A DNA stretch of 64,000 bases from a virus (IMGVR_UViG_3300046167_000798); one strand, 5' to 3'. Positions 17,026 to 49,788 are shown, counted from the first letter of the stretch. The notes: a model not told the origin generated them from the letters alone. Translations and numbers: made by a program.

Positions 17026-17053
17026 TTTAATTTCTCCTATTATTAATTAATTG

Positions 17054-18838
17054 TTATCCATCACACGCAACACAATCAGGGTCAACTGCTCTTGTTGCGA
17101 TATCACCTCTAAGAACAGATTCAGTTCTCATATAATACAACGTTTTAATTCCTTGTTTCCAAGCTTCCATAGTTACTTGGTTAATCCATTTCGGTGATGC
17201 AATGGAAGGGAATGCTAAATTTAATGAAACTCCTTGGTCAATGTATTGTTGTCTTACACCAGCTTGTTTAACTAAATCCATTTGATTGATTTCTTTGAAA
17301 GTTCTGAAAACATCTTTAACAGGATAAATCTTATCTCTATCTCCATTTTCGATTTCATTACAAAGTAACATTTTACCATCTAAGTAACACCACTTATCAA
17401 GTTCTTTAATACCTTGAACAGAACCACCATCGGACATTATCTGGTCCCATGTTTCTTTATTATTGATACCTGCTTTTCTTAAAACCTTTACTAACTCATT
17501 GTTCTTTCTAATGAAAGTTCCTTTTGCAGTTTGTTCGGTGAATACATTCGCCGCCCAAGGTTCAATACCAGCAGATACGTTTCCAGCTAATTTAGAGTTA
17601 CTAACTGTTGGAGCAACTGCTCTTAAGTGAGTGTTTCTAAATCCACTTTCTCTACACCAAAGAGGTTCACCCATTTCAGATGCCATATCTCTTGATGCTC
17701 TTTCTGATTCTATCTTTAACTGAGAAAAAATCTTACGAGTTTCAAATTGAGCCTCCATACCTTCAAATGGAACACCATTTTGTTGTAGGTAAGTGTGCCA
17801 TCCTAAAACTCCCAATCCTAATGCTCTACCCTTTTCAGCAGATGCAACAGAGTTTTCGAATCCTCTCATATTTTTAGCCTTTTGAATAAACTCAGAAAGT
17901 ACTCCATCTAAGAACCAAGTTGCTGTATAAACTAAATCAGTATCTCTCCACTCGTTGTATTTAGCAAGATTTACTGATGATAAACAACAAACAAATGAAT
18001 GGTTCTCATCTGTATGTAAAGTAATTTCAGAACATATGTTTGTCATATGAACTTTTAATCCATTTTTTTTGTACATTTCAGGATTAGCTTTATTGATATT
18101 CCCTTTGTACATGATGTATGGTTCACCAGTTGCTTTTCTTTTTTGTAGTAATTTTCCCCACTTTCTTCTCGCATCAGGTTCTCCTTGTTCGAGTTTTCTC
18201 ATAAACTTATCACCTACAACTGCACATTGATGTAAGTTAAGTGATTGTCTATTTACATCTCCTTTAGGTTCTCTGATTTCTAACCACTCTTCGAAATCTT
18301 GGTGGTCAATATTAAGGTTAACTGAAGCAGCTCCCCTTCTTACTGAACCTTGGTTAGTTGCAAGTATTGTAGAATCGTATATCTTAGCAAATGGTACTAC
18401 ACCATCAGATGTTCCATTTCCACTAATTACAGAACCGGCTGGTCTGATTTGGTTTATTCCAATACCAACACCACCACCATGTTTTGCAAGTAACATCAAT
18501 TCTAAGTTCTTATTTCCAATATCATATATAGAATCAGCAACATCAATACCAAAACAAGATATAGGTAATCCTCTATCAGTACCAGTATTTGAAAGTACAG
18601 GAGTTGCAAGATTTAACCAACCTTTCCAAATATAATCGAAGAATTTAGTTGCCATCTGAGGTTTGTTTAACCTTTGAGCTACTCTTGTTGCAACTCTCCA
18701 ATACGCATCTTTTGGTTTTTCACCTGGTAACAAATATCCTTTTGATATTGTTTTAACATATATTTCTGTATTTGCCCATGAAGGGAAATCTACATCAAGT
18801 TCCCAACCTAAATCTGCTCCGTAGTTTGTTTTTGCCAT
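17054..18838 (-). CDS. nrdA: Class Ia ribonucleotide reductase alpha subunit, no ATP cone
   Basis: ISCF, TNICSEI, APTVSNS, TLYYMR, C-terminal CVAC. Confidence 0.95.
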   Translation of the reverse strand: MAKTNYGADLGWELDVDFPSWANTEIYVKTISKGYLLPGEKPKDAYWRVATRVAQRLNKPQMATKFFDYIWKGWLNLATPVLSNTGTDRGLPISCFGIDVADSIYDIGNKNLELMLLAKHGGGVGIGINQIRPAGSVISGNGTSDGVVPFAKIYDSTILATNQGSVRRGAASVNLNIDHQDFEEWLEIREPKGDVNRQSLNLHQCAVVGDKFMRKLEQGEPDARRKWGKLLQKRKATGEPYIMYKGNINKANPEMYKKNGLKVHMTNICSEITLHTDENHSFVCCLSSVNLAKYNEWRDTDLVYTATWFLDGVLSEFIQKAKNMRGFENSVASAEKGRALGLGVLGWHTYLQQNGVPFEGMEAQFETRKIFSQLKIESERASRDMASEMGEPLWCRESGFRNTHLRAVAPTVSNSKLAGNVSAGIEPWAANVFTEQTAKGTFIRKNNELVKVLRKAGINNKETWDQIMSDGGSVQGIKELDKWCYLDGKMLLCNEIENGDRDKIYPVKDVFRTFKEINQMDLVKQAGVRQQYIDQGVSLNLAFPSIASPKWINQVTMEAWKQGIKTLYYMRTESVLRGDIATRAVDPDCVACDG

Positions 18839-18839
18839 T

Positions 18840-19283
18840 TTATATTAAATCTTTTTTTATTTTTTCTTTGTAGGTGTTTTCATCTATAAAACTATAAGTT
18901 CCTAAAATTTCTTCACCCTTTTTAATTTTCCTAATTGCAAGACCAGTTAAACTATCAATATTACCTAAAAGGCCTTTAGTATTAATTAAAGACCTTGGGT
19001 TTGTAAACAAAAAATTAGAATTTTTTGTTAATATAAATCTAACATCAGAATCATCATCTATAATATCACTCCCAAAGGAACGAAGTATATAAAGTAATAC
19101 ATCTTCAGGAAGTTTTTTTGCCAGTTTTAGTTTTACACTATACCAACCTGTTTTACCTTCCCATTTTGGGAAAACTTCGTCTCCCTTTTCTATATCAGTT
19201 AAAGCAAATAACCCAATTCCATGAATTTTACTAGGTTTTGCACAACTTTTTATAGAGTTAGAAATATACTCAAGTACATTCAT
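18840..19283 (-). CDS. SET-domain protein
   Basis: SKIHGIGLFA..IEKG and AIRKIKKGEEILGTY. The NHS motif is degenerate (LINTK). Confidence 0.8.
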   Translation of the reverse strand: MNVLEYISNSIKSCAKPSKIHGIGLFALTDIEKGDEVFPKWEGKTGWYSVKLKLAKKLPEDVLLYILRSFGSDIIDDDSDVRFILTKNSNFLFTNPRSLINTKGLLGNIDSLTGLAIRKIKKGEEILGTYSFIDENTYKEKIKKDLI

Positions 19284-19292
19284 ACTCTTAGT

Positions 19293-20289
19293 TTAAAATA
19301 AATCTCCCCAATCTTCTCCTTCATTAGCCTTGCTATAATCAGTAGGTCTAACTGCAAAGAAATCAGTATGGGTTAATCCACCAGTTAAGTGATAGAACCA
19401 TTCTAATTTTTCTGCTTTGTTTTTATCGAATTCAAAAATAGATTCATACCCTAATTCTTGTAGTTTAGTATTTGTTCTTGCCTTTAATGAATTCTTTTAA
19501 ATCTTCTTTTTCAAGATTTTCCAAATCTCCTTGTTCAAAAATCATATCAATAAAGTTTGTTTCTAATTGTACAATTAGTTTTGATGCTTCAATAATTGAT
19601 TCTTTACATTCATCTAATAACTCAGGATATTCATCACACATATGTCTGAATAATTGACAACCCATTTTAGAATGTAGAGATTCATCTCTTACACTCCATT
19701 TCATTTGTTGTCCAATACCTTTTAATAGATTTCTCATTTGGAATGAGTAGAGTACTGCAAAGGAAGAGTAGAGCGATACTCCTTCAGCAAATGCTGAAAA
19801 TATCGCTAAGCTCCTACCTACTTCCTGTCTTGCTTTTGGATTTGTTGCCAAATCTTCATGTTTCCATTCTGCAGTAGTTGAAGTAAGGAGTTCAAACTTC
19901 TCAGCAACTGCAGGTTCGTGCAGAAATGCTGAAAAGTCATCTAATCCTAATGTTTCATTTAAGTATGAATATGCAGTAGCATGAATAGTTTCTTGAGAAC
20001 CGAACATCATAGCCATTTGTTTGATTTCGTGTTTCGGAAACCAATCAGTAACCATGTTAGTCCAATAATCAGAAACTGCACATTCAGTTTGAGCAAAACC
20101 AAGTAAGATATTCCCCACTAGATTTTTCTCAGCTGGGGTTAAACGTTCATTCCAATCCTTTACATCACCCTGCATCGGTATTTCTGTATGTAACCAAAAT
20201 GCTTGTGCCTGTTTTAACCAACCTTCTGTATAGTAGATTGGGTATTCGAATGGTTTAAATGGAATTCTTTCTTGAAATAGTTTGCTCAT
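19293..20289 (-). CDS. nrdB: Ribonucleotide reductase beta subunit (~331 aa, one inserted base at ~19483)
   Basis: QTECAV, ETIHATAY, AEGVSLYSSF, RDESLH. Corrected tail IKARTNTKLQELGY...HTDFFAVRPTDYSKANEGEDWGDLF*. Confidence 0.95.
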
Positions 20290-20298
20290 AGTAACTTA

Positions 20299-20469
20299 TT
20301 ATTTTGATTCTTCTACTGAAGCTTTTCTGTAATCTGTTACTAGTTTCTTAACTTCACCAATTGCTTTTCTTGCTCTTGATTTAGCTGCTTTTGAACCACC
20401 ATTGTGTTCTGTTTCAAATTGAACGAATAAATCTTTAATCTGTTCAAATAGTTCTTGTGAATTTGCCAT
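20299..20469 (-). CDS. Histone H1-like (Hc1 family) nucleoid protein, 56 aa
   Basis: MANSQELF...GSKAAKSRARKAIGEVKKLVTDYRKAS. The ATG at 20469 is preferred over the ORF-track start. Confidence 0.75.
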   Translation of the reverse strand: MANSQELFEQIKDLFVQFETEHNGGSKAAKSRARKAIGEVKKLVTDYRKASVEESK

Positions 20470-20617
20470 AAAATATTTAATTATTAATTGTTTTGAAGTG
20501 ACCAATCATTTGGTCGTGTTTATAATTATAGTATATATTGAAAAACGAAATGATTTTTTTCATAATTTTTTTATCTTTTTCATTTTGTTATACTAAGTTA
20601 TTCTTTTTTAATGTGTG

Positions 20618-21589
20618 TTATAATTTTTTGATACACTTATCTAGTATATTTTTATTAGGTGTAGAATTAATATCAATCCCAAATTTGCCTGTATAATCAC
20701 AAGCTAATTCACTCCATGTAGATAATGATGTTTTAAATAATTCTCTAGTATTAGATAAACAATACAGGTCTAAAAAGTTCTTTGTATGTAATTCTAATGG
20801 AATTTCCCAACTAGATAATAAATCATAAAATTGATTTTTAAAAATCAAATTATCAGGATATCTATCAATCCATCTTTGAAAATCATTATCGTGTAAATCA
20901 TGAGAAATATAAAATTTTTGATTTGGACTTTTTTCTAATATCAAATCTATCTTTTCAAAATAAACTTCATCTTTAATAAAATCAAATTGATAAAATTTCC
21001 AAGCTGGCATATCTTTTACTTTTAATCTAATATACTCAGAAAGTATATCATGATTCCAACCTTCAAATAAATTTAAATCAATTGAATTTCCATTATTTAT
21101 TTTTACACCTCTACCTCTTCTAATATGAATACCAATACTGTTCTTAACAATATCTCTTATATCTTTATTTATATCCTTATGCTTAAACTGTAAGTTATTA
21201 ATAAATCTTTTTGTATAGTTTGATGAGAAATCAGAAATTTGTCTTTGTGTAAAATCTGTATAATAATTCTTATCTTCTAATTTTAACTTACCATTTACAA
21301 TATCTTGAACCATTTCATCAGTAATTGGTAAGTATTCATCAAAGTTAATTGTATCTGTTCTTAATACTGTTGTATTTTCTAATTCAAAACAGTTATTGGT
21401 TTCAGGATTTTGTTGAATATCAATAATAACTTCAAATTTATCATCATGTATATGATTTATAATTTTTAGTAATTCCCAACACAATAAACGATTACATAAT
21501 CCTGTATCATTTAATTGGTCTTCTCCATAGATTTCATCCAATGGTCTATAAATTCCTCTATTATTTAAATCTGCTACAACTAATTTCAT
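20618..21589 (-). CDS. GT11/GT23-like fucosyltransferase-type glycosyltransferase
   Basis: IGIHIRRG, FYISHD, DLYCLS...STWS motifs. Confidence 0.65.
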   Translation of the reverse strand: MKLVVADLNNRGIYRPLDEIYGEDQLNDTGLCNRLLCWELLKIINHIHDDKFEVIIDIQQNPETNNCFELENTTVLRTDTINFDEYLPITDEMVQDIVNGKLKLEDKNYYTDFTQRQISDFSSNYTKRFINNLQFKHKDINKDIRDIVKNSIGIHIRRGRGVKINNGNSIDLNLFEGWNHDILSEYIRLKVKDMPAWKFYQFDFIKDEVYFEKIDLILEKSPNQKFYISHDLHDNDFQRWIDRYPDNLIFKNQFYDLLSSWEIPLELHTKNFLDLYCLSNTRELFKTSLSTWSELACDYTGKFGIDINSTPNKNILDKCIKKL

Positions 21590-22954
21590 CTATCCCATAT
21601 TCTCTACATACTTTTTATGTAGAAGTTTTTTTGTTTCTAATTGTCCACTAGCCGATTGTTTTGTTGCAATCACACCATCTGGTGATGTTCCTTCATATAC
21701 TTCAATGTAACCTGTATTGGTATTCATCTTACAAGGAAATGTTATTCCATCTGGTCCGAATCTGTTTTTCATAATGTGAGCTCTTGCAGTATCATTAAGT
21801 TTATCTTTTGATTTTCTACTCCAACTCATAATGAAATCGGCGTTCATTACTTTTGCATAAGAATCTGCAATCTTATCTGCCTCAATAACTTCGGAATCAA
21901 TTGCTGAACGGTTGGTCTGAGATGCAGTCCAAATTGGTATTTCCAATTCACCACTCATTCCACGAAGGTCAATATAAACCCCTCCTTGTTCCGCATAAGT
22001 AGAGTCTGACTTATTCGAATGGGAGAGTAGAAGGTCGGCATAATCTACAATGATAACATCGGGTTTGTTATCTAACGTAACCATTTTCTCAATATGTTGC
22101 TGTAACTTTTTTACTGTAACACCCTTTGGAGGAAAATATTTTATCAATAATTTCCCATTAAGATTTGTAATTTTTGCTTTAACTTCTTCTTTCTTTTCCT
22201 TCAATTCTGTGGAAGGTATTTGTGTAAACACAGTATCATATCTAGCACCAACGTAGTGCTCTGATAATTCCATTGTGTAATGTACTACACTCAAACCTTT
22301 CCGAACAGCTTCTGCACCGATTGCGGTGAGAATCCATGTTTTTCCTACACCCGAAGGTGCTACAACTACTCCAAGTTCACCAGGTCCTAATCCACCATCC
22401 ATCAGTGCATTAATTGGCTCCCATTTAGTTGGAACTGTTGTTCTATTTAGTTCTTCGGCTCTTAAATCAAAGTCCTCTATATAATCCATACCTAAGTTGG
22501 TTTCATTACCAACCTTCATAGCCGAATCTACTAAATCTTTTATTCTATCATACGAACCAGCTTGTAATAAATCTACTGATTGTAAGATTACTCCTTTTAA
22601 ATTTTGATTAATACAGAAATTCTTAAACTCATCCTTTATATAATCTAAATCTACATTACCAATATTAGTAAAAACGTGTCTTAGTTGTTCAACAACAGTT
22701 TTCTTTAAAACTTCGTTATCTACTTTTGATAATTGTGATTTGAATACATCGAGTGTAGGAGGTTTTTTATATTCTGAATGATACTGAAGTATTTCTGAAA
22801 CAATCCACTTGTTTGCATCGTTCTCAAAGAACTTTTGAGTGGTTATTTCTGAAATAGTATCTAAGAACTTGCCATCAACCAAAAGTGATGATACAACCTT
22901 CGATTGAAATGATTGTCCATATTTTGATAATGTATCTACTTTTTGTTCTTGCAT
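21590..22954 (-). CDS. DnaB / T4 gp41-like replicative helicase
   Basis: APSGVGKT, IIVDYADLL, WTASQTNR, MKNRFG. Confidence 0.92.
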   Translation of the reverse strand: MQEQKVDTLSKYGQSFQSKVVSSLLVDGKFLDTISEITTQKFFENDANKWIVSEILQYHSEYKKPPTLDVFKSQLSKVDNEVLKKTVVEQLRHVFTNIGNVDLDYIKDEFKNFCINQNLKGVILQSVDLLQAGSYDRIKDLVDSAMKVGNETNLGMDYIEDFDLRAEELNRTTVPTKWEPINALMDGGLGPGELGVVVAPSGVGKTWILTAIGAEAVRKGLSVVHYTMELSEHYVGARYDTVFTQIPSTELKEKKEEVKAKITNLNGKLLIKYFPPKGVTVKKLQQHIEKMVTLDNKPDVIIVDYADLLLSHSNKSDSTYAEQGGVYIDLRGMSGELEIPIWTASQTNRSAIDSEVIEADKIADSYAKVMNADFIMSWSRKSKDKLNDTARAHIMKNRFGPDGITFPCKMNTNTGYIEVYEGTSPDGVIATKQSASGQLETKKLLHKKYVENMG

Positions 22955-22976
22955 TGACTCTTTTTTAAAACTTATA

Positions 22977-23007
22977 CAAATATACGAAATTTATTTTTAA
23001 TATCCAA
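22977..23007 (-). promoter_or_regulatory. Bacteroidota-type early promoter (helicase)
   Basis: TTG-N20-TATATTTG. Confidence 0.8.
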
Positions 23008-23008
23008 A

Positions 23009-24064
23009 TTAATCAGTAATTAAATTTCCAAATGTTATTTTTAACCAATCATTTATATCACCAAAACTACCCAATGATTTATATTTTAGTAATATTTTCA
23101 TAAAATCCATTTTATTTAATGGTTTAATTGGTTCGTTAAACCTATCTAAAGTTTTCATTTTAATTTGGCCCGAAATATCAACATCATCTAACTGCATTAA
23201 ATCTTCATTAAGTAAGATTTGTCTTTTAGATTTAAGTATATCTTTGTATATTTTTATTTTTCCTTTTGTTTCCTCTACTTTTACCTCAGCTAATTCTAAT
23301 AAATCATCTACTGATAATTTCTTTTCTTCGGTAATTTCAGGAAATCTTTTTACTAGGGTTTTAATTCCACACCCATATACACCAGGTATGTTATCTGATT
23401 TATCCCCATCTAATACTCTGTATAATAAAAGATTTTTAGATTCTATTCCATATTCTTCTTTTACCATTTTTGTATTATACATTTTCTTTTTAGTAGGTGA
23501 CCAAACAATTGTAGTATCATTAACTAATTGAAGGAAATCCTTATCAGTTGACATTATCACCGCTTGTTCATCTTCTTTTAAAATATTTGTGGTTATATAA
23601 GCCATGATATCATCGGCTTCAACACCATCGTATATCATAGTTGTAAGAGGTAATCCATCTAACATTTCGTTTAACCAAACGAATTGTCTTTTCATAGATT
23701 CTCTTTCATCCTCATCGTTCATCAAATCAGCGTACTGTCTGTTAACTCTGAGTTTGTTTTTATCTCTTTGTGCTTTATAACCACTAAATACTTTTTTTCT
23801 TCTTTTAGAACCACCCTGTCCATCAAAAACTACAACAACACGAGATGGTTGAGTTTGCCTAATTGCATATCCAATAGATTTTAGGGCTCCTGTTACACCA
23901 CCAATATGGTCTCCATCCTCATTCATAGTGGGGATAGATGACCAACATCTGATAAATGTATTTAACCCATCAATAATTAATACACGAGAATTCTTGTGTC
24001 TATTGATATTATTTTCTCTATCGGTCTCAACCGAATCTAATATGTTCTTGTAAAGTTCTTTCAT
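23009..24064 (-). CDS. 5'-3' exonuclease / flap endonuclease (T4 RNase H-like)
   Basis: LIIDGLN, VVFDG, VEADD, STDKD, GDKSDNIPGV. Confidence 0.92.
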   Translation of the reverse strand: MKELYKNILDSVETDRENNINRHKNSRVLIIDGLNTFIRCWSSIPTMNEDGDHIGGVTGALKSIGYAIRQTQPSRVVVVFDGQGGSKRRKKVFSGYKAQRDKNKLRVNRQYADLMNDEDERESMKRQFVWLNEMLDGLPLTTMIYDGVEADDIMAYITTNILKEDEQAVIMSTDKDFLQLVNDTTIVWSPTKKKMYNTKMVKEEYGIESKNLLLYRVLDGDKSDNIPGVYGCGIKTLVKRFPEITEEKKLSVDDLLELAEVKVEETKGKIKIYKDILKSKRQILLNEDLMQLDDVDISGQIKMKTLDRFNEPIKPLNKMDFMKILLKYKSLGSFGDINDWLKITFGNLITD

Positions 24065-24285
24065 TATAATACAGTTTTTCCGTCAAAGTAAGTTTGTAAT
24101 GTTCCTATTCTATCATCTGCATCTACTAACTTAATCAGAGCTTCCTCTGCATTTTTGTAGAAATCTTCAGTAGAATGGTCACCAATACCAACTGCTTTTG
24201 AACCCAATAGTTCTAATGAAAGTAGAGCCTTTGCTTTATCAGCTTTGGCACTACTCATTAACATTTCATATAATTTTGCATCCAT
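24064..24285 (-). CDS. Hypothetical protein
   Basis: 73-aa ORF coupled to both neighbours. Confidence 0.7.
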   Translation of the reverse strand: MDAKLYEMLMSSAKADKAKALLSLELLGSKAVGIGDHSTEDFYKNAEEALIKLVDADDRIGTLQTYFDGKTVL

Positions 24286-24289
24286 AGTT

Positions 24290-25417
24290 TTACTCGTTTA
24301 TACCAGCACCTTTGGTATCTATTTCCATATTATCAATATCGAGAGTATCTCCTTTATATTGTAAGATTGTTTCTTCACATATCTTTTTATAAATTTGTTC
24401 TCTAAGTTCTTCATTCTCACCCATCAAAGGAATAAAATCTTTTGATTGAAATTTGAATTCTTCACCTGTTTCAGTATCAACATATGCATACCATGCACCA
24501 GCTTGTTTTACTAGTTTATTTTCTTTCATTACAGATAACCATGAACCATAGTTATCAATACCTCTATCGAAGAAAATTTCAAAATCAGCTGCCCTTAGAG
24601 GTGGGCCCATTCTGTTTTTTACAACTTGACAACGTACTTTCATACCAACTGTCTTATCCTTACCATTTACCTTCATCTTGATTTGTCCCATATTCTTTAA
24701 CCTTAATCTTACAGATGCATGGAAAGCCAAAGCTTTTCCACCACTTGTAGTCCAAGGGTCACCGAACATAGCATTCATCTTCTGTCTTAATTGGTTAGTA
24801 AATACCAATGAGATTTTCTGTCTACCAATCATATTGGTAATCTTTCTCATTGCCTTCGAGATAATAATAGCTTTATCAGTAGCATATCCATCTTTCTTGT
24901 AATCTGCCGCTAATTCATTAGTTGTAGAAGCAGCCGCAACTGAATCTACTACTATTGTTACTATCTTATCTTTGGAAGTTTCTCTAACTTTCTCAATGAT
25001 AGTTTCTGTGAAATCAAAGATTTGTTCAACCGAATCAGCTGTAACATAAAGAAGTTTAGAAACGTCAACACCGATTGCTTCTAAAAATTCTCTACTTACT
25101 GCAGTTTCTGTATCAATAAGAACAGCAACACCACCTTGTTTCTGTGTTTCCGCAAGGAGGTGTGCTGATACTAATGATTTTCCTGATTGTTCTAATCCTG
25201 TGATTTCAGTTATTCTACCAACAGGTAAACCACCATAAGGACGATTGGAGACAGCTACATCCAACATTGCACATCCTGTCGATATCCACCCATCTACATT
25301 TGTAGGAGCTTCATCATCATTAAGAAAAAATGCTACTTTGGAATCTTTCGATTGTTTGTTAAGTTCACCCGCCAGAATATCTGCCAAGTCAAGCTCTTTT
25401 GCTTTCTTTTTCGCCAT
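24290..25417 (-). CDS. recA: RecA/UvsX recombinase
   Basis: ISTGCAMLD, GLEQSGKS, VVDSVAA, FTNQLR, SGGKALAFHASVR. Confidence 0.95.
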   Translation of the reverse strand: MAKKKAKELDLADILAGELNKQSKDSKVAFFLNDDEAPTNVDGWISTGCAMLDVAVSNRPYGGLPVGRITEITGLEQSGKSLVSAHLLAETQKQGGVAVLIDTETAVSREFLEAIGVDVSKLLYVTADSVEQIFDFTETIIEKVRETSKDKIVTIVVDSVAAASTTNELAADYKKDGYATDKAIIISKAMRKITNMIGRQKISLVFTNQLRQKMNAMFGDPWTTSGGKALAFHASVRLRLKNMGQIKMKVNGKDKTVGMKVRCQVVKNRMGPPLRAADFEIFFDRGIDNYGSWLSVMKENKLVKQAGAWYAYVDTETGEEFKFQSKDFIPLMGENEELREQIYKKICEETILQYKGDTLDIDNMEIDTKGAGINE

Positions 25418-25428
25418 TAAATTGGTTT

Positions 25429-26232: not shown

Positions 26233-26267
26233 GATTTTTACCTTTTAGTTTTAATTAATTTATTTTT

Positions 26268-26304
26268 TAAGTTTAAGTTTTGAGTGCTAAACTTATTAAC
26301 ACTC
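26268..26304 (-). ncRNA. Predicted H-type pseudoknot in the SSB mRNA leader
   Basis: S1 GAGUGUU/AGCACUC, L1 AA, S2 UAAGUUU/AAACUUA, L3 AAAACUU, then 35 A/U-rich nt to the ATG. Confidence 0.65.
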
Positions 26305-26312
26305 GGTGTATA

Positions 26313-26320
26313 TATAAATA
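26313..26320 (-). promoter_or_regulatory. TATTTATA late-type promoter motif (SSB leader)
   Basis: Same octamer that precedes the structural genes. Confidence 0.55.
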
Positions 26321-26369
26321 TAAAGAAATCATAAAAAACACCGAATTTTTATAATTACTTATTAACAAT

Positions 26370-26804: not shown

Positions 26805-26829
26805 TTATTTAAATTTTAATTTTGTTATA

Positions 26830-26860
26830 CAAATATACGAAAGTTTTTTCAAACTTCCAA
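26830..26860 (-). promoter_or_regulatory. Bacteroidota-type early promoter
   Basis: TTG-N20-TATATTTG. Confidence 0.8.
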
Positions 26861-27319: not shown

Positions 27320-27331
27320 GCAAAAAGTGAA

Positions 27332-30827: not shown

Positions 30828-31233
30828 TTATCCTTGTATAATATATAAAGTACCACTAACTGGTGTAATTGCATCATAAGATGCAGATGTCATTACTTCT
30901 ATAATATTTGTTGAAGATGAACTTACAAATCCATCTAACTGAGATGAACCACTAACTAATCCACTTGGTAAAGTTGTATGTGATAAATCTGAAATTTGTG
31001 ATTCAGTAATTGTAATTTGAGAACTTCCACTAATTACTCCACTTGGAAGTTGGTCAGTCACAGAACCACTTAAAATTCCATCACCATTTGTATTTAAATA
31101 TTTTGTATCGAAGTTTGTTGTAGTGGTTGTTGAATCAACTAACCATGTTGTTCCATTGTAAATATAAACTGTACCATTACTTGCTGTATGTGTATCTCCG
31201 TTTGATTGCTCCATCAGGAAAATTGAAAGCCAT
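30828..31233 (-). CDS. Small fibre-module protein (~134 aa, one inserted base at ~31206)
   Basis: Corrected start MAFNFPDGASNGDTH. SGSSQI repeats shared with the tail fibres. C-terminus ASYDAITPVSGTLYII. Confidence 0.7.
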
Positions 31234-31252
31234 AATTAAATCTCCTCTTTAG

Positions 31253-31260
31253 TATAAATA
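31253..31260 (-). promoter_or_regulatory. TATTTATA late-type promoter motif followed by AGGAG
   Basis: Octamer, then AGGAG 8 nt before the ATG at 31233. Confidence 0.6.
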
Positions 31261-31873
31261 TTAATGAGAATGTGTTACCTCATGTTCTTCCCACCCTTCG
31301 ATTGGCTTAACATTTGGAAATCTAAAACATCTATAACTACCATCGTTATCAAATCTAATGTGTTTTATCATATGAGTTGGAACGTGTCCACCTGTTGGTA
31401 AAACTTCATGTCCATCTATAAATTCTAAATTAACTGTAATAGTTAAGTTTGAATCATCATCCCATCTTCTTTCTTGTTCTTCTAATAATCTCCACTCACC
31501 TCTATTAAGATATTGGTTTTGTAGAGCACAATTTAAAAACGAGAATGTTTGTCGTAGATTTTCTTTAGAATCGGAAAAAGTTGCTGGCTGGAGCAAGATG
31601 ACCTTTATCCCATACGTTTGCATAATAGTCAGCATTATCAGATGTATGATAATCTGCTTCATTATAAAAATTCATTGAACCTCTATCTACATTTTTTGGT
31701 CTATTAGTTGATGTGTAAATTAATTGAACAGGTTGTTCTAATACTTCGTTGTACCAAACTTTAAATACCGCATTTTCAACAATTACATTTTCTCTTAAGT
31801 CTTGTGCAACAATTCCGTCTGGTTCACATCCCCACAAGATGAATGATAACAGTAATATTTTAAATAATTTCAT
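31261..31873 (-). CDS. Lipoprotein DNA/RNA non-specific endonuclease of NucA/EndA type (~203 aa, one inserted base at ~31587)
   Basis: Lipobox LWGC, DKGHLAPA active site, NCALQNQYLNRGEW..LEEQER. Confidence 0.85.
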
Positions 31874-33211: not shown

Positions 33212-34466
33212 AATTTTTACCCCAATCTGCTTTGACAGGAAATCCATAACTTTCGAGAACGGATTTAATCTTTTTAATAGTTTCAACCTCAGAATCATCA
33301 AACTCGAATAAGAATGAATCATATGTGTATAATATAGGTAGAGGTAACCCTTTTTCTTTTAGTTTATTCAGTACCTCAATATTGAACTCAGTTTCCGTCG
33401 CTTGGAGAATATAATTAAAGAACTTTTGAGAATTAGGTTTTTCAATCCACTCTAAAGGTATTTTTCTTCCTTTTGGAGTTTGTAGATAACCATTCCTCAC
33501 TGCTTCATTTTGCATCTTAGAAATAAACTTATCTACTTTATCAAAGAATGGTATCTTTCTATCTTCATCGGATACTCCCCCATATAGGATTCTAAACGTT
33601 CTTCCTTTGGATTCCCCATAATCACAACCATATTGGTCTGCTAACCATTGGTGAACCGAAGTATCGGGTAAATCGTATTTAATCAACTTACCAATAATTC
33701 TAACATGATACGCATCGTAATCGAATTGTAAGAAGAGAGAATCTTCGGGTGGAATAAAGGATGCTCTTGAACCATCTTTTTTGTTAAGAGCAGAGAAGTT
33801 TACACCACCATGTCTATTCGAAGGTCTTGATGTAATCGTGTATGGATTGTACTCGGTATAAACAACATCTCCTTGTGGATGTAATTTAATGTGTTTTGAA
33901 TTATCGGGCCATCTATCAAAAAATTTTTCCCTATCGACATTTATCCCACTTCGTTCTAAATCTGAAAGGATTGGAATCATCGTATCATCAACCCAATTGT
34001 TTGTATCTTTTATATCCCATTCACCAACAATACCTCGTAGTACCTCACTCCACTTCATTATAGAGATACTCTTACCCAAGTCATCTCTTATACCCAAACG
34101 ATAGTAAAAGTTCGTTAAACCCTCTAATTTCGATTGTATATCATATAATTGGAATTTCTCAAAGAATAAAGAAGTTTGCACATCTTTTAGATTATTTACC
34201 TTAATATTGGTTTGTAAGAAACCTTTTTTATCCCAAATCCACTTTGTTTGATTCGAGGTTGATAAATCTATTTCTAACTTTTCACAATCATTATGGTTGA
34301 ATGGAAGAATAAAGTCATCTTTTGGAAATCGGACATACAAAAATGACAACCCATTAGTCATAGGATGTCTATCCAAATCTTCCCAAATCGGAATAATCTT
34401 AGATTCTTCGTTATTCCAATATTCGAGAAACTGGTCTTTCTCTTTATTAGTTTCTACTATAATCAT
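33198..34466 (-). CDS. Compact family A DNA polymerase-like protein
   Basis: Motif A FDYDAYHVR, motif B K..TFRILYGG, NYILQAT, motif C YTYDSFLFE. Confidence 0.8.
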   Translation of the reverse strand: MIIVETNKEKDQFLEYWNNEESKIIPIWEDLDRHPMTNGLSFLYVRFPKDDFILPFNHNDCEKLEIDLSTSNQTKWIWDKKGFLQTNIKVNNLKDVQTSLFFEKFQLYDIQSKLEGLTNFYYRLGIRDDLGKSISIMKWSEVLRGIVGEWDIKDTNNWVDDTMIPILSDLERSGINVDREKFFDRWPDNSKHIKLHPQGDVVYTEYNPYTITSRPSNRHGGVNFSALNKKDGSRASFIPPEDSLFLQFDYDAYHVRIIGKLIKYDLPDTSVHQWLADQYGCDYGESKGRTFRILYGGVSDEDRKIPFFDKVDKFISKMQNEAVRNGYLQTPKGRKIPLEWIEKPNSQKFFNYILQATETEFNIEVLNKLKEKGLPLPILYTYDSFLFEFDDSEVETIKKIKSVLESYGFPVKADWGKNYGEV

Positions 34467-34469
34467 ATG

Positions 34470-34598
34470 TTAATCCATCCATTTTCCATGGGTTCGTAGA
34501 TGCCAAAATCTATGTTTTAGTACTTCTAATACTAATTGAAAGAAAGTATCTGTTTCATAGATACCCGCTCTTGTTATAAGTTTAAACTTTGGTTTCAT
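34470..34598 (-). CDS. Small hypothetical protein (42 aa)
   Basis: MKPKFKLITRAGIYETDTFFQLVLEVLKHRFWHLRTHGKWMD. ATGA overlap with the upstream ORF. Confidence 0.65.
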   Translation of the reverse strand: MKPKFKLITRAGIYETDTFFQLVLEVLKHRFWHLRTHGKWMD

Positions 34599-34729
34599 CT
34601 TACTCCTGCATTATGTTCTAATAGGATTAGTTCTGCAGTTTCTTCATCTACATAACCACTTCCATCGATATCGATTAAGTGTCCTACATAATACATTCCA
34701 TCTTGTTGTGTTAAATCTGTTTTATTCAT
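34595..34729 (-). CDS. Small hypothetical protein (44 aa)
   Basis: MNKTDLTQQDGMYYVGHLIDIDGSGYVDEETAELILLEHNAGVR, directly after a promoter. Confidence 0.65.
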   Translation of the reverse strand: MNKTDLTQQDGMYYVGHLIDIDGSGYVDEETAELILLEHNAGVR

Positions 34730-39971: not shown

Positions 39972-39975
39972 ATTT

Positions 39976-40269: not shown

Positions 40270-40272
40270 CTA

Positions 40273-42876: not shown

Positions 42877-42882
42877 ATATTA

Positions 42883-45449
42883 TTATCCTGTGTTAGAAGC
42901 TCCGTATGCAGAGTTACTCATTTTACTTTCTGATTTTTTACCTATTAAATCAGTTACAATAGTTCCATCTATATAAACATCAAAACTTTTCTTTTCTATT
43001 GCCGATACAACTCCTTGTAATCCAGCAGTTATTTGTTCACTTATAATACTTAGTGATTCATTTTCAACAGATGATACTTCGGATGAACTATTATCACCTC
43101 CACCACCAAATGCACTAAATAACATTCCTAATCCTGCTCCAGCAACTCCTAATCCTAATAGAGTTGGTAACGCCGCAATACCAGCAACTCCCAATAATCC
43201 AAGTGAAACAGCTAATGCAGCAAATGCCGCAGATAACATAAATATTCCACCTACCATCGATATTAGACCAGTTAGATGTGGCCCAATTACAGTAAGTGTT
43301 TGTAATCCACTTGCTAATTGATTTAATCCAAATCCTAATGCCGCAACGGCCGCACCGATTAAGAACATTCCAGCGGCGGCGGTTAATATTACTGCCGCTT
43401 GAGGTCCACTAAATAATAACCCCAATCCAAACATCGCCGCAGTTAGTAGTACCATACCACCTATTGCCATTCCTATTTCTTTTAATCCAACATTAGAAAA
43501 TTCTTGTAATGCCTTTCCAAGTATAAAGAGTGAACCTGCAATTAAAACCATTGCTGCCGCACCTTTAACTACATCGGTCATTTTTATTCCTTTCATGGCT
43601 CCTGTTAATTTACTAACACCACCACCTGCTTTTCCACCAGCATCTGGTGTAACTGAATCGGTTATTTTTGGAGTATCTCCAACACCTTTCATTGCTCCAG
43701 CTTTTAACTTACCAAATAAATTACCTGTTTTTTGGCCAATTGGAGAATCTTTTATTTTAGTTCCAAGAGATGAAGCCAATCCTCCTAACTTAGCACCAGC
43801 TCCTCCAAATAGTTTTGAAACACCAGAAGCAGCCATCATTGTTAGGTTTTTAAGTACCTTTGCAGAGTTTTTAACCATACCACCCATGTTTATACCCATA
43901 TCCTTTAAGAAAGGAGATGCTTGTCCTGCAGCGATTGCAAATCCACCTAATCCTTTTAATGATTTACCAAGTGGTCCTGATGCAAATGCTGATAAACTTT
44001 GTGACCAAGTTTCAAATGTTGATAATTGCATTGTACCATCATCATTTAACTTATCCATGTTTTTAGCCATTTTGGAAAGTTCTTCTACTGATAATCCTAA
44101 TGCTTCAGGCAGCAGCTCGTTTCTCAATAACATTCATTTTTTCAAATGCAACTTGTCCACCAAGTTGTTTTATTGTTTCCTTAACTGATGCTCCAATTTT
44201 TCCTTGGAAAGCAAGTCCTCTTGCTCTCGTTAGATTTATATTTCTACCTAATATAGCTGATAGTTCTAATTCTTTTGTAATTGATGATTCAAAATCAAGT
44301 AACCCATCTGTTACTTTACCAAGTGTACTCATCGATACACCAAGTTTTGCCGCTTGAACTGCTGATTTAGCTAATTCTTTTGTTGCCGATTGCACCATAT
44401 GAAGCAAATAATTCTGCATTCTGAGCAATATCTTCCATTGCCTGTGATGGTATAACTCCTTGTTGTTTAGCAAAATCTTTTGTCTGTTGTGCTAAATCTT
44501 GAGCCTGTTTTGCGGTTAAGTTACCAGACCTTGCTAAAATACCTGTAAGTTTTGCAGCTGATTCTCCACTAATACCCATGTTAACGGCCATTAGATTCGT
44601 ATTCAGTTGTGTTCTAAAAGAAGTTCCCTCTACACCCGCAAATTCATTTGCAAGTGTTTTTGATACTGCCGCCGCATCATCAAATACAAGACCAAGTGCA
44701 GTTGTTTGAACTGTGGCCATTCCCAAGAATCCACCAAACTCTCTAACATTCTTACCAATAGCCTCTGCTGCATATCCAGCTCCTATTAAAGCTCCACCCA
44801 ATACTCCACCTACTGTTTTTGAAAGTAATGATGCAGTTTCAAGGATTCCTCCAATAGTATCCTTCATTCCTTCATATACAGCCATTTGTTTATTTAGTAA
44901 ACCTTGTTGTTTTTCTGTTAAACTAGATAGATTTTTTGCTTTATCAAATTTTTCCTTTTCTATATCCAATTGAGCCTGTGCATCAGCACCAAGGCCTTTC
45001 ATACCTTTCATGATATCTTGAATCTTCTGTTCTATTACTGCTTTTGATACTTCATCTTCTGCAGATAATCCTAGTAATTCATCGTTAAGTGAACGAATAG
45101 AACTAAGTTTATCTCTAGTACTTGAATTCATACTATCAGATTTAGACATCAATTTTATTCTATCTCTTTCTAATCCTACAAATGATGCTTGAATACCAGA
45201 TAGACCTTTTAGTTTCTGTTCCTCTTGCATTAAGGTAGATATTCTATCTGATTGGTTTTTCTTTGCTTCGGTTATTTCACCATTTATTTCTTTTAATTTA
45301 GAAACAATATCGTTATACTGTTTATTTGATTTTTTAAACTCAGCTGCTAATGCGGCGTTACCCTTTGTCTCTTGTTCTAAGAGGGATAAGGCTTCTTTTT
45401 TAAGTGTATTACCTTCTTTAAGTAAATTATTTAGCTGTTGTTGAGTCAT
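42883..45449 (-). CDS. Tail tape measure protein (~854 aa, inserted bases at ~44109 and ~44390)
   Basis: Coiled-coil N-terminus, Ala/Gly-rich amphipathic repeats, hydrophobic C-terminal third. Three ORFs fuse after deleting two bases. Confidence 0.85.
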
Positions 45450-45461
45450 CTATTAAAAGTC

Positions 45462-45668
45462 CTATTGTAAATCTTTTAACATCTTTTCTAATTCTTTAGA
45501 TGCTTTTTCTATTTGAGACATTTTTTGTACTACCTTTGGTGGTACTTTTTTGTTTTTCTTTGCAGCCTTAATTGCACTATTAGTTGCATTCTTTTTTAAT
45601 CCATCGAAAAATGCATCTGTGAATTTCTTTGTAGCCGAAAATAATCCTTCTTTTAATTCTTTTGCCAT
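45462..45668 (-). CDS. Small basic hypothetical protein
   Basis: 68 aa, with TATTTATA and AGGAG upstream. Confidence 0.7.
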   Translation of the reverse strand: MAKELKEGLFSATKKFTDAFFDGLKKNATNSAIKAAKKNKKVPPKVVQKMSQIEKASKELEKMLKDLQ

Positions 45669-45698
45669 ATGAGTTTCTCCTATATAGTTTTATACTAA

Positions 45699-45706
45699 TA
45701 TAAATA
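45699..45706 (-). promoter_or_regulatory. TATTTATA late-type promoter motif
   Basis: Between the terminator and the AGGAG of the tape measure operon. Confidence 0.6.
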
Positions 45707-45711
45707 TAGGG

Positions 45712-45742
45712 TAAAAAAAAAGTGAGGAATTATTTCCTCACT
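45712..45742 (-). terminator. Intrinsic terminator
   Basis: AGTGAGGAA-ATAA-TTCCTCACT followed by T9. The stop codon sits in the loop. Confidence 0.85.
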
Positions 45743-45969
45743 CTTACATTTGGTCCTTTAGCACCACCTTGTTTAGTGGCCTTATCGTGTTCCTGTTTTT
45801 CTTTTTTCTTGGCATCTACTAATTTCTTAAAGTAGAAGTTTCTCCAATGAATTGGCATCGAATATACTTCTGACCAAGTAAATCCATTACCATAGTTAAC
45901 CATTTCCCAAATTTGGTTATGTAGTTGTATCGAGTAGTTACTCGGAAGGGTAAAAAAACCCAACCCCAA
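45730..45969 (-). CDS. T4 gp51-like baseplate / tail assembly protein, possibly a frameshift extension
   Basis: FTWSEVYSMPIHWRNFYF. Overlaps the upstream gene across a T7 run and has no good ATG. Confidence 0.65.
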   Translation of the reverse strand: MGLGFFTLPSNYSIQLHNQIWEMVNYGNGFTWSEVYSMPIHWRNFYFKKLVDAKKKEKQEHDKATKQGGAKGPNVRVRK

Positions 45970-46708
45970 AGGGGATATCTAGGGCCTCCTCTTCTCCTGT
46001 TATGTCAGAGGTGAAATGGAATGTCAAATCCAAATCAGGTGAGATATCTCTTACATAGTTTCTCAAAGCTCTCGAATCACGAGCTAAAAGATTGTTTTTA
46101 ACCCAATTGTTGATAAAACCTCTATCGGTATTACCATCAACCTCTTGAATCATATATCTTAATCTTGTTGATACTTCTTGTGAAATAGGCTCACTTCCTT
46201 TTTTCTGAAGTCTTTGTATTGCCTGTATCTCTGCATTTATATCTCCCTCATCTTTATGAGTTAATAATTTAAATACAATCTTTTTCTTTGAAATTGGTAA
46301 TTCAAAGTCATATCTATTATCACCATTTAATTTAGAACTATCTACTTCTTTAATTTGTATTTTAGAAAGGTCTATTTGTACTTCTTGTGGTTCTCCACTA
46401 GAAGGGTCTATTACTTCTGCTTTGTATTCTGGTCCATATCCTAAGATACGAGTTGCTAAAAGGATTGCATTTTTATCACCGATGAATATATCACCAATAT
46501 CCAAACCTTCTTCTACTACCACAGATTCAAAGAGTTTATCGAGAACCACCCCCTTCCTTATCAAATTTTGTGAAGCAAGTATATCCTCTTCTTTAGCGGT
46601 CATATACTTTATCTCAACAGTACCCTTTGATAACGGGTGTCCTTCGGTGTACATTTTACCACCTGAAGGTAAATCTACTATTTCAGTAGGGAAATCAAAT
46701 TTTGCCAT
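45938..46708 (-). CDS. T4 gp26-like baseplate hub / tail assembly chaperone
   Basis: VDLPSGG..Y, IKYMTAKEEDIL, GDKNAILLATRILGYG, ends FFYP. Confidence 0.75.
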   Translation of the reverse strand: MAKFDFPTEIVDLPSGGKMYTEGHPLSKGTVEIKYMTAKEEDILASQNLIRKGVVLDKLFESVVVEEGLDIGDIFIGDKNAILLATRILGYGPEYKAEVIDPSSGEPQEVQIDLSKIQIKEVDSSKLNGDNRYDFELPISKKKIVFKLLTHKDEGDINAEIQAIQRLQKKGSEPISQEVSTRLRYMIQEVDGNTDRGFINNWVKNNLLARDSRALRNYVRDISPDLDLTFHFTSDITGEEEALDIPFGVGFFYPSE

Positions 46709-46730
46709 AACGTTAGTTTATTTATTTGTA

Positions 46731-46738
46731 TATAAATA
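46731..46738 (-). promoter_or_regulatory. TATTTATA late-type promoter motif
   Basis: 22 nt before the ATG. A second copy lies at 46803-46810. Confidence 0.55.
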
Positions 46739-46768
46739 TATAATATTTAGAAATTTAAAAATTAAGCA

Positions 46769-46797
46769 CAAAAAAAGTTCTCACTAAGAGAACTTTT
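46769..46797 (-). terminator. Intrinsic terminator after the tail tube gene
   Basis: AAAAGTTCTC-N5-GAGAACTTTT with T runs on both sides. Confidence 0.8.
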
Positions 46798-46823
46798 TCC
46801 TTTATAAATATGTTGAATATGTA

Positions 46824-47315
46824 TTAGAATTCTAAAACTGCGTAATCATAAGATAGTGTTAAAGTAATTTCAGCAGGGTCAGAGGCATTTGACCAATCTA
46901 AATCATTAAACACTGCATTGTTGATAAATGCACCTTTCATAGTCCATTGTTCAATTTTATCACCAACTGGTCCTAACATATAACATTGGATATCTTTCTT
47001 ATAGAAATCTGCATATCCATCTCTACCTGTTAAAGATTCATGTGATAATCTTACCCATTCCATTACTGCTTGAGCTCCTGAAGGAACGATAGGGTCATAT
47101 AGAGTAATCTCTACATCTTGCCATTCACCTTTTCCTTTAAGTTTTCTTTTAACGTTAATGTGGTCTAGTGTAACAGTTTCAAATTGAATTGAAGGTCTGT
47201 TTGCTGTTTTTATAAGATATGAAGGGATACCATCGATTTCCATGATGAATCTATTCTTCATCTTCGGTTCGAAGTTGGTATAAAACATATCGTTAAATTC
47301 TAATACTTCTGCCAT
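46824..47315 (-). CDS. Tail tube protein (gp19-like)
   Basis: EPKMKNRF, KGKGEWQDVEITLYDPI, ITLTLSYDY. Follows the sheath gene. Confidence 0.9.
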   Translation of the reverse strand: MAEVLEFNDMFYTNFEPKMKNRFIMEIDGIPSYLIKTANRPSIQFETVTLDHINVKRKLKGKGEWQDVEITLYDPIVPSGAQAVMEWVRLSHESLTGRDGYADFYKKDIQCYMLGPVGDKIEQWTMKGAFINNAVFNDLDWSNASDPAEITLTLSYDYAVLEF

Positions 47316-47341
47316 TTTGTTTTCTCCTAATTATATTCTAC

Positions 47342-47349
47342 TATAAATA
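47342..47349 (-). promoter_or_regulatory. TATTTATA late-type promoter motif (tail tube)
   Basis: Followed by AGGAG 8 nt before the ATG. Confidence 0.6.
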
Positions 47350-47373
47350 TAGTTCTTTTTTATTTTTAATTAA

Positions 47374-49745
47374 TTATGCCGAGAATGATGCCCCTGTCGG
47401 TAAGATGTTGAAGTCTAACACGATGAATTCAGCAGTTTTTGTTGGTTGTAAGAAAATCTGTCCAGCCAATATATTTCTGTCAATTACATCTGGTGTGTTA
47501 TTACTCTCATCCATCACCACTCTAAATGCATACAATCCTTGTCTTTGTTGTATTCCTTCTAAATAAGGATTCACAGTATTTAAGAATCTACCTCTCGTTT
47601 GAGAAGTGTTTTGTTCGAATACTAAGTATCTTGAAGTTGAAGCAATATACTTCTTAACTTTAATCATTAATCTTCTTACGTTGATTCTATCAAGTGCAGA
47701 TGCCTTATCTTGTAAAGTTTTTTGTCCGAATGCTACGATACCTTCTCCTGGGAACTGAGCAATTGGATTAACTTTTCCTTCATATAGTGTATCTCTCTCT
47801 GAATGTGTTAATCTGTTTAATACAGATACCGCACCTACGATACCACCTCTATTTAAACCAGCTGGTGCAAACCACTCAGCAGCAACCGCATCGTTGGCCG
47901 CATATATACCTGGCATCAATACTGATGGTGGTATAGTTGTTAGTTTATTAGTTCTTGAATCTATTGTCTTAACCCATGGGTAGTAAGAACCTACATAGTT
48001 AGAATCTATATTACTTGCCTGTGATGTAGCATCTGATATAGTATCTCCTCCATCAGTAATATCACCGATAAAGAATGCATCTTCTCTTGCTTCTACCATA
48101 TCAACTACTTTATCAAATACATAAGAATGTAATCTTCTTACTACACCTGGTGCAGATACTAAGTTAATATCGAAATCATCTGGATTAGATACTGAGTTGA
48201 TTGCCTTTACATAAGCAACTGAACCACTTGCAGTTGAAGTAGATAAGTTAAATCCTTGTGAGTTTCCAGCACCCCAATCAGAATCACCATATTTAGCTGA
48301 TTTGATATTTGGAGAGACTACCATCGAATCCACTTTGGAATCCTACGATAAATTGTCTTTTGTTAATAGTTGTTGCAGTATCTGATGTAGATAATGTATA
48401 TCCAAAGTTCTTAGTTGAAATAACACCATCCTACGATTGCAGTAAATGCCGCATCGAATGAGAAAGCAGTATTACCACCACTAGTTGCCGAAGCAGGTAT
48501 TGGAGATAAGTAACTGTTGTTATCAATTTTTACTACTGCAGTTTCTAAATCAATACCACTATATTGTATATTCTTAGAACCATTGTTATCTCCCGAACCA
48601 GTTGAAAATATAACTGATGGTATCATAGCTTCTGTTCCATTAGAACCAACATAAATTGGATTAACGTATGCTGCATGTCCAAATGGTGCAGCAACTATTG
48701 GGAATGAACCTTCATCAGAACATTCTACTCTAATAAATTTAGAGTTATTTTGATAATCACCACTCATGTTCATTTTACCAACTGAATCGATAGAAACGTT
48801 CATATCACCAATTCTTTTCTTAATATAGTTTGGTGATGCAGGGTCTAGGTTTACATTATTCCATGTTTCAAGAATAATTGGTCTTTTATGTGTATCAGAG
48901 TATCCTCTTACTACAACTGAGAATGTTGAATAATCAGTAGAGTTAGTAGAACCAGCTGCTTTTACATTAAAGAAACCTATTTTGTATTCTTTGTTGTAAT
49001 TAGTACCATCACCTAAAGTATGGAACTTAATTAAATTATGTCTTTCACCAGAAATCAACTGTGATTGTATCCATGGAGTTGAGGCATGTTGAATATCTTG
49101 TGTGAAATCTTGTGTTGCCAATTCTATTGATTTTACTTGAGAACCACTTTGTGATAAATACGATGTATGGTCAACAGCCGCTTTTTCAAAGTACTTGTGA
49201 GCATATGCTTTTTTAGAACCTCTAGCAGATTCTCCAAATACATCAGATATATCGTTTCCTGCACTTGGTAGTACAGATGAGGATACTGATGTTCCTATTT
49301 CTGAACCACTAATAAGGAAAGCTGATGCTGATGGTTGTGAATCAATGATATTGGAAGCTGTTGCAAATCCAACAGTTTGAGAACCTTGATGTGTTGCGTT
49401 TAAAACACCGATTAATCTTCTTCCACCTTGTGCGGTAGAACCACTTACTTCAATTCCTAAAGGTTTAACTTGTGAATAACCACCTTGATGACCAACACGA
49501 ACAATAGTTACTGTTCCTGCTTCTCTTAGGTAGTTTTGTACGGTATATCCTGTATAGTAATCTCCATTAGGTACACCAAATATTTCTTCGAATTCTGATT
49601 GTGTATTAACAACGGTTGGTACGAAAGCAGGTCCTTTATGGAAAGGTCCAATTATTGCTGCTCCAATTTCACCAATCCCTTGTGATAAGAAAGAAAGGTC
49701 ATTTTCTCTCGTAAATACACCAGGTGATACAATTTTTTCTGCCAT
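47374..49745 (-). CDS. Tail sheath protein, gp18-like (~789 aa, inserted bases at ~48317 and ~48430)
   Basis: SPGVFTRENDLS, YYPWVK, WFAPAGLNRG, FGQKTLQ, RINVRRL, PTKTAEFI. The gap 48334-48410 is open in the intermediate frame. Confidence 0.95.
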
Positions 49746-49788
49746 TTTATTTACTCCTTGTTATGTTTTTTGTATATGAATACTCTTA

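Follow-up and report, generated by a model that had tools for sequence, protein, structure and literature searches.

Why would a phage place Shine-Dalgarno (SD) sites before some of its genes if its host belongs to a phylum whose ribosomes normally ignore them? This question is raised by a 64,000-nucleotide (nt) stretch of viral DNA (IMGVR_UViG_3300046167_000798, hereafter the window), which spans the tail and replication regions of a T4-like marine giant phage (~276 kb). The original prediction held that AGGAG ends exactly 8 nt before the ATG of five genes in the window and that the phage, with a ribosomal protein bS21 or an equivalent encoded elsewhere in its genome, switches the ribosomes of a Bacteroidota host to SD-dependent initiation in favor of its late messages. 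The window was compared with its relatives G002 (123 kb), G005, G007 and G009, the last a contig from IMG/VR with a length of 275,970 bp and a completeness rating of 100%, and with the cultured phages Mel-JY01 (PP395634.1) and vB_FspM_immuto (MW353176, hereafter immuto).

SD sites before a small set of genes

All five sites are present on the minus (coding) strand, each followed by exactly 8 nt and then ATG. They are AAGGAG before the tail sheath gene (AGGAG at 49754-49758, ATG at 49745), AGGAG before the tail tube gene (47324-47328, ATG at 47315), AGGAG before the gene for a 68-amino-acid (aa) Lys-rich protein ahead of the tape-measure gene (45677-45681, ATG at 45668), GAGGAG before the gene for a 134-aa fiber-type protein (AGGAG at 31242-31246, ATG at 31233) and AGGAG before the thioredoxin gene (17034-17038, ATG at 17025), where the site lies 28 nt behind the nrdA stop codon. 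The string AGGAG-N8-ATG occurs on the coding strand five times in total, every time at a gene start. With 91 AGGAG in 64 kb, finding AGGAG at the exact 8-nt offset before 5 of 67 starts has a binomial P of 5e-8, and the value is 3e-4 if any spacer of 5-10 nt is allowed instead.

All five sites can base-pair with the CCUCC core at the 3' tail of 16S rRNA. Their duplex energies with ACCUCCUUU range from -7.3 to -9.0 kcal/mol, while those of the other starts are mostly above -4 kcal/mol. The SD cores are 5-6 nt long, and none extends to AGGAGG. The window as such is not rich in SDs, with pairing at -5 kcal/mol or better for 13/67 starts vs. 12.8% of all ATGs; thus, the SD signal consists of a few strong sites and is not a general habit. 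In the structural half of the window, four of ~36 genes carry an SD; in the replication half, with 31 genes, the single SD is that of thioredoxin.

Three of the sites are preceded by the late-promoter-type motif TATTTATA, also on the minus strand, which stands 13 nt upstream of the tube SD (47342-47349), 17 nt upstream of the SD at 45677-45681 (45699-45706) and 6 nt upstream of the fiber SD (31253-31260). The distance from this motif to the SD therefore varies, while the distance from SD to ATG is constant in the window. The SD is tied to the ATG and not to the late motif, which fits a translational rather than a transcriptional signal, and its position is that of an SD site, about 4-10 nt before the start and independent of other signals.

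We then scored GGAG before the start codon in the distinct upstream sequences found among IMG/VR relatives. It is present before the tail tube gene in 37/37 sequences (spacer 6-10 nt), before the sheath gene in 28/28 (8-9 nt) and before the thioredoxin gene in 39/47 (5-9 nt), with 4 weakened and 4 lost in the latter. None was found before genes next to these, i.e., p94 before the sheath (0/30), the hub gene after the tube (0/43) and p79 after thioredoxin (0/23). The thioredoxin GGAG persists down to 63% protein identity and is kept in G009 despite a different open reading frame (ORF) upstream. Likewise, (A)AGGAG-N8-ATG follows TAATATTTATA or TAATACTTATA in all seven full-length orthologues of the fiber protein for which upstream sequence is available. 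Before the 68-aa gene ahead of the tape measure, the relatives carry AGGAG, a weakened AGGA or none. The spacer of exactly 8 nt holds for the five sites of this strain, and it ranges from 5 to 10 nt in the relatives. The sites are non-random, complementary to the anti-SD, anchored to the ATG and conserved. The SD stays constant while its flanks and the neighboring leaders drift, so that the sites behave as real SD sites under selection.

GGAG at a spacer of 4-10 nt precedes 28 of the 345 starts of G009 (8.1%) vs. 2.0% of all its ATGs, and in G002 an SD is found at 17% of starts vs. 1.6% of all ATGs. The SD genes of G002 include those for the major head protein, prohead protease, baseplate wedge and hub proteins, sheath and tube. 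The strongest SDs of G009 (AAAGGAGGT and AAGGAGGAG) precede small proteins of 53 and 108 aa, encoded at 18577-18738 and 236857-237183, outside the virion modules.

The original prediction also assigned SD sites to late genes and A-rich leaders to genes behind early promoters. The early promoters of type TATATTTG that it named proved to be real. There are six, which share the form TTGG-N19/20-ttCGTATATTTGTA: one at 22977-22984 (minus strand), and the others with their TATATTTG at 26830-26837, 16726-16733, 14785-14792, 11834-11841 and 7178-7185. Eight of the eight genes directly behind early-type motifs indeed have A-rich, G-poor leaders without SD. Loss of this promoter family in relatives was considered and rejected: G002, G005 and immuto do not contain the exact early-promoter 10-mer CGTATATTTG, but this is due to variant ends of the motif (TATATTTAC, TATATTTAGG). 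The late motif has ten intergenic copies on the coding strand, and its longer form ATATTTATA has zero on the other strand.

When the genes of G009 were classed by their nearest upstream promoter motif, an SD was found on 21/150 late-class vs. 6/157 early-class genes (Fisher p 0.002), and on 10/44 vs. 1/36 of those directly behind a promoter. The same late-vs.-early Fisher tests were not significant in the window alone, in G002 or in Mel-JY01. SD sites are therefore enriched on late genes, especially those for abundant virion proteins, as predicted, but they mark neither all late genes nor late genes exclusively. In the metatranscriptome run X15, contig depth was far higher over sheath and tube than elsewhere in the stretch; such depth cannot rank genes and was not used as evidence. 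The window's gene for a gp32-type single-stranded-DNA-binding protein stands behind a late-type TATTTATA (26313-26320), with a weak AAAGG placed 8 nt ahead of the ATG (26232), which is unusual for a replication gene.

bS21 in relatives of the phage and a possible change of ribosome

The predicted bS21 was not found in the window: a hidden Markov model search at E<=10 gave none, while the control, G009, scored 2e-31. The family PF01165 is above the Pfam cut-off in G002, G005, G007, G009 and Mel-JY01, and bS21 is present in every sufficiently complete relative of the clade, including the complete G009, where its gene lies 17.6 kb from the region matching the end of the window. In the clade, the gene is situated within the head-gene region, and in G002 it stands behind a late-type promoter motif. 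No match was obtained in a tblastn of the phage bS21 against phage records, and a single-sequence scan of IMG/VR with it found two loci.

It was also asked whether the phage bS21 lacks the residues that bind the anti-SD, and in the relatives it lacks Tyr54. In Flavobacterium johnsoniae, Tyr54 of bS21 stacks against A1534 and contributes to directing the 16S tail into the bS18/bS6 pocket (PMC7797042). Five Bacteroidota bS21 that we compared are 64-65 aa long; all carry Tyr54, and the net charge of their C-terminal part is +1 to +3. The clade bS21 are 101-108 aa long; in five members the Tyr54 column holds an invariant Arg, and the C-terminal part comprises 54-61 residues with a net charge of +11 to +17. 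An ungapped match to the F. johnsoniae structure 7jil_z (residues 14-59 on 9-54) gives the same pairing of Arg with Tyr54, and the bS21 of Mel-JY01 has Arg or Lys in this column. In all five clade members examined (L084:1465-1479, L193:1465-1479, L083, L086 and L209), an AGGAG also precedes the bS21 gene, separated from the ATG by 1 nt (..AGGAGA ATG); the sequence further upstream differs.

Phage immuto, cultured on Flavobacterium sp. LMO8, is the nearest cultured relative with a Bacteroidota host. It shares with the window a collinear tail module, a sheath 57% identical, the late motif ATATTTATA before sheath and tube, and a similar early promoter, TTG-N-cgTATATTT, of the form TTG-N-cgTATATTTAGG. 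It differs in that its sheath and tube genes have plain A-rich leaders without SD and in that it has no bS21 gene; PF01165 was not found in its complete genome. GGAG precedes 3 of its 226 starts (1.3%), below the 3.9% background of all its ATGs, and none of its six strict orthologues of G009 SD genes has an SD. Thus, despite a common late promoter, the bS21-less phage is without SD sites on the orthologous genes. By comparison, Mel-JY01, which encodes bS21, has GGAG before its capsid, sheath and tube genes and before the small gene ahead of the tape measure (TTAGGAG). These comparisons suggest that the presence of bS21 is associated with SD sites. The thioredoxin orthologue of immuto has AAAGGAG with a 3-nt spacer (CAAAAGGAGCAT ATG), which is either a remnant SD or chance.

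The mechanism that these sequences would allow is as follows. Late in infection, the phage bS21 would displace host bS21 on 30S subunits. With Arg for Tyr54, it would fail to keep the 16S 3' tail inside the bS21/bS18/bS6 pocket, so that the anti-SD would be freed, and the SD-led phage messages, mainly for high-copy virion proteins, would gain a translational advantage. We give about an even chance to this replacement of host bS21 by a phage bS21 that frees the anti-SD and favors SD-led messages. It is in line with the effect of the Y54A substitution in F. johnsoniae bS21, which gave a 1.7-fold increase of a strong-SD reporter in vivo and a 3-fold increase of rpsU'-gfp in vitro (PMC9976891).

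Several observations weigh against it. In F. johnsoniae, Y54A and deltaC ribosomes gave a weak-SD mRNA no preference, and rpsU control requires pairing below -13 kcal/mol (PMC9976891). The phage cores, at about -7 to -9 kcal/mol, do not reach the extended, rpsU-type pairing below about -13 kcal/mol, a comparison that is approximate because the duplexfold energies used here and the free_scan energies of PMC9976891 are on different scales. The thioredoxin gene lies in an early-type operon without a late promoter, and six early-class genes of G009 have an SD, so the late messages of the original prediction do not cover the whole SD set. Moreover, the association between bS21 and SD rests on one bS21-less relative and is in effect a single contrast, which makes it suggestive only.

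A fuller program with two states can be envisaged, although only tentatively and with rather less confidence. Ribosomes with a hidden anti-SD would translate the A-rich early messages and that of bS21; the variant bS21 would then convert ribosomes to SD reading and boost the virion genes and thioredoxin. The AGGAG 1 nt from the bS21 ATG is too close for SD-guided initiation and may thus repress bS21 once ribosomes read SD sites: SD-reading ribosomes would be mispositioned on the bS21 message, a brake that may mirror the host rpsU circuit.

Alternatively, the SD sites may be read by host ribosomes that lack bS21, either naturally or because such ribosomes accumulate after host shut-off, given that bS21 binds late and loosely; the phage bS21 would then do something else. 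A natural bS21-free subpopulation of F. johnsoniae ribosomes does prefer the SD-led rpsU mRNA (PMC9976891), and SDs on thioredoxin and on some early-class genes fit ribosomes that are SD-competent before late expression of bS21. These natural bS21-free ribosomes, however, required very strong SDs, which those of the phage are not. Immuto, growing on Flavobacterium, would meet bS21-free ribosomes too, and yet it is without SD sites, with SD-like strings depleted at its starts. We therefore consider this explanation unlikely.

The host and the remaining alternatives

Replacement of a host bS21 that hides the anti-SD presupposes a host in which the anti-SD is hidden, and the sequences point to one. 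The window encodes a full-length GroEL (7226-8842; phrog_5725, 7e-174). In a tree of the best 80 sequences among the matches listed, the GroEL of the window and of G009 fall inside the Bacteroidota split with a Shimodaira-Hasegawa-like approximate likelihood ratio test (SH-aLRT) value of 100, and with Flavobacteriia at 86. Among the matches listed, the phage GroEL is nearest to those of marine Flavobacteriaceae and Formosa, and its long branch within Flavobacteriia indicates an old capture from a host lineage. A look-up of GroEL in the ESM Atlas gave at most a weak hint that Bacteroidota are commonest. The best match of the bS21 core among solved structures is that of Porphyromonas gingivalis (PMC12123416).

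The early promoters fit the Bacteroidota layout of -33 TTG and -7 TAnnTTTG, and their architecture is common to the window's clade and the Flavobacterium phage immuto. In Mel-JY01, 14 promoters vary at the two middle positions of TAnnTTTG and never in TTTG, a pattern that is the signature of Bacteroidota. More than 90% of the phage leaders are SD-less and A-rich, as in the Flavobacteriia host class. The extended SD (AAAGGAGGT) of the marine Flavobacteriaceae rpsU genes compared here indicates that bacteria of the likely host group possess the canonical anti-SD. In Mel-JY01, at least 14 promoters have the form ttcTTGcat-N-tttcgTAnnTTTGta (e.g., at 53716, 83393, 111436 and 143695); this form is of the Bacteroidota type and common to the clade.

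Other findings run counter to such a host. The tube gene was found in none of 185,579 GTDB species genomes, and no host link to a metagenome-assembled or single-amplified genome was found. Sorting domains of the type IX secretion system (T9SS) are a mark of Bacteroidota hosts; one of them, PF18962, is present in immuto and not in the window's clade, whereas a search for PF13585 says nothing, because the domain was absent everywhere, controls included. By sheath identity, the cultured phage nearest to that of the window is Mel-JY01, whose recorded host is Microcystis.

These findings would also suit a host outside Bacteroidia or one that reads SD sites normally, in which sparse SDs on the highly expressed genes of an AT-rich phage would be ordinary. 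A phage bS21 without Tyr54 and with a basic tail resembles the bS21 of other phyla (PMC7797042), and the window's early promoter is also readable as TTGGAT-N17-TATATT, a sigma-70 type. Nevertheless, the position of GroEL within Flavobacteriia, the P. gingivalis match of the bS21 core, the invariant TTTG of the Mel-JY01 promoters, the promoter architecture common with Flavobacterium-cultured immuto and the predominance of SD-less, A-rich leaders all argue against it, and we regard such a host as quite improbable. Thus, although no direct link was found, the GroEL, the promoter type and the SD-less leaders indicate that the host is probably a member of Bacteroidota, as originally predicted, with Flavobacteriia the most likely host class on the best-supported reading of the sequences. 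The recorded cyanobacterial host of Mel-JY01 may deserve a check, e.g., for a Bacteroidota companion in the culture.

Phage T4 RegB cleaves GGAG in the SD regions of early genes, and the small and mixed set of genes (virion genes, thioredoxin and small unknown proteins) could suggest that AGGAG, rather than being a ribosome-binding site, is recognized by an RNA-binding regulator or a nuclease of the phage that sets message timing or stability; this is very improbable, however, given that the motif is the exact complement of the anti-SD and lies 5-10 nt before the start in ~100 divergent sequences, with the bS21 gene and its 1-nt spacer as the sole recurring exception, and that no RegB-like gene turned up, although no search was aimed at RegB.

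Genome context and comparison with known systems

The window has a G+C content of ~31%, and 67 of its 69 called ORFs are on the minus strand. The part between 64 kb and ~27 kb encodes tail fibers, baseplate parts, sheath, tube, hub and tape measure; the part between ~27 kb and position 1 encodes the gp32-type protein, UvsX, an exonuclease, a DnaB-type helicase, NrdA/NrdB and thioredoxin, as well as a family-B DNA polymerase, GroEL and methyltransferase-like proteins. No tRNA genes were found in it, and no phage record matched the window by megablast. Collinearity with G009 spans positions 134-198 kb of the latter, and protein identities are mostly 60-95%. Near-identical DNA was found in 14 seawater or marine DNA runs and, in part, in six RNA runs, and more than 595 relatives of the tail tube gene are present in IMG/VR. 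The phage clade is thus very common in seawater.

The tail sheath gene (47374-49745, minus strand) matches phrog_23 (1.8e-66) in its C-terminal part, and the SD stands before the N-terminal part. In the window it is split into three frames by indels near 48430 and 48320, and in G009 it is an intact ORF of 783 aa. The tail tube gene (46824-47315, minus strand) encodes 163 aa (phrog_4542, 4.2e-29), and the thioredoxin gene (16762-17025, minus strand) encodes 87 aa with a CGPC motif (phrog_22, 4.7e-11). The gene for the fiber-type protein (MAFNFPDGA...; 30828-31233, minus strand) has intact orthologous ORFs of 134 aa; in the window, the ATG at 31233 opens just 18 codons because of a 1-nt assembly insertion, as public contigs are without one base at 31206.

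Further 1-nt frameshifts lie at 31586, 44107, 44390, 10634-10656, ~19465 and 2305-2402, and the essential genes split by frameshifts comprise those for the sheath, tape measure, DNA polymerase, NrdB, a DNA/RNA non-specific nuclease, the 134-aa fiber protein and a 902-aa protein. The public contigs are without one base at five of the frameshifts, including those at 31206 and 48320, and the ORFs of G009 are intact at all of the frameshifts. An alternative genetic code, considered as an explanation of the split genes, was discarded, since the breaks are 1-nt indels missing from public contigs. The frameshifts of the window are assembly errors, neither pseudogenes nor recoding.

A sixth AGGAG at a gene start (34603-34607, minus strand) lies 4 nt before a 42-aa ORF (34470-34598). 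This ORF is carried, between the AGGAG and a 422-aa gene, by a strain-specific insertion of 135 nt (34467-34601), which is missing from G009 and from contigs of three DNA runs, the public contigs skipping 34466-34602; in other strains, the AGGAG is therefore 7 nt before the 422-aa gene, which starts at 34466. The small fiber protein of the window (30828-31233) is 99% identical to that of G009 (167501-167905; L291), in contrast to 45-87% for the flanking genes, which suggests that this receptor-side module was exchanged recently.

No viral ribosomal protein is commoner than phage-encoded bS21, whose function has been an open question since 2019. Bacteroidia ribosomes, in turn, are the one well-studied case of an anti-SD hidden by proteins. 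In the literature searched, no paper was found that describes SD sites before the genes of Bacteroidota phages or links such sites to a phage bS21, and two 2026 papers in Nucleic Acids Research on the anti-SD of F. johnsoniae make no mention of phages. The closest precedent is the description by Chen et al. (2022, ISME Commun; PMC9723584) of freshwater myoviruses of Bacteroidetes that encode bS21. Like the phage clade studied here, these are large, have predicted Flavobacteriia hosts and carry bS21 among head genes; their bS21 is expressed with late structural genes and was proposed to substitute into host ribosomes and favor phage transcripts (PMC9723584). Their bS21, however, keep an aromatic residue at Tyr54 and were proposed to keep the anti-SD blocked (PMC9723584), whereas those of the window's clade do not have the aromatic residue and instead have Arg followed by a basic tail of 54-61 residues. 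No SD sites on phage genes are reported in PMC9723584.

Bacterial systems offer two further comparisons. In Francisella tularensis, a swap of bS21 paralogues also changes which mRNAs are translated (PMC9578407); there, the paralogues are cellular, the host uses SD sites normally and no viral takeover is involved. The autoregulation of F. johnsoniae rpsU (PMC7797042, PMC9976891) is closer in that an SD-led mRNA in an SD-blind host is preferred by ribosomes with a free anti-SD, and in that Tyr54 and the C-terminal region of bS21 control this SD-led reading. In the phage clade, a set of SD-led genes is combined with a bS21 in which the key hiding residue is missing, while immuto, bS21-less and SD-less, serves as a natural control; with concrete leaders and proteins in hand, the possibility that a virus re-specifies which messages a ribosome chooses can be tested in F. 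johnsoniae itself. The two systems would nevertheless differ in scale and in trigger: the host circuit involves one gene with pairing below -13 kcal/mol and is set off by the absence of bS21, whereas the phage has cores of 5-6 nt on ~8% of its genes, and the proposed trigger would be a variant bS21.

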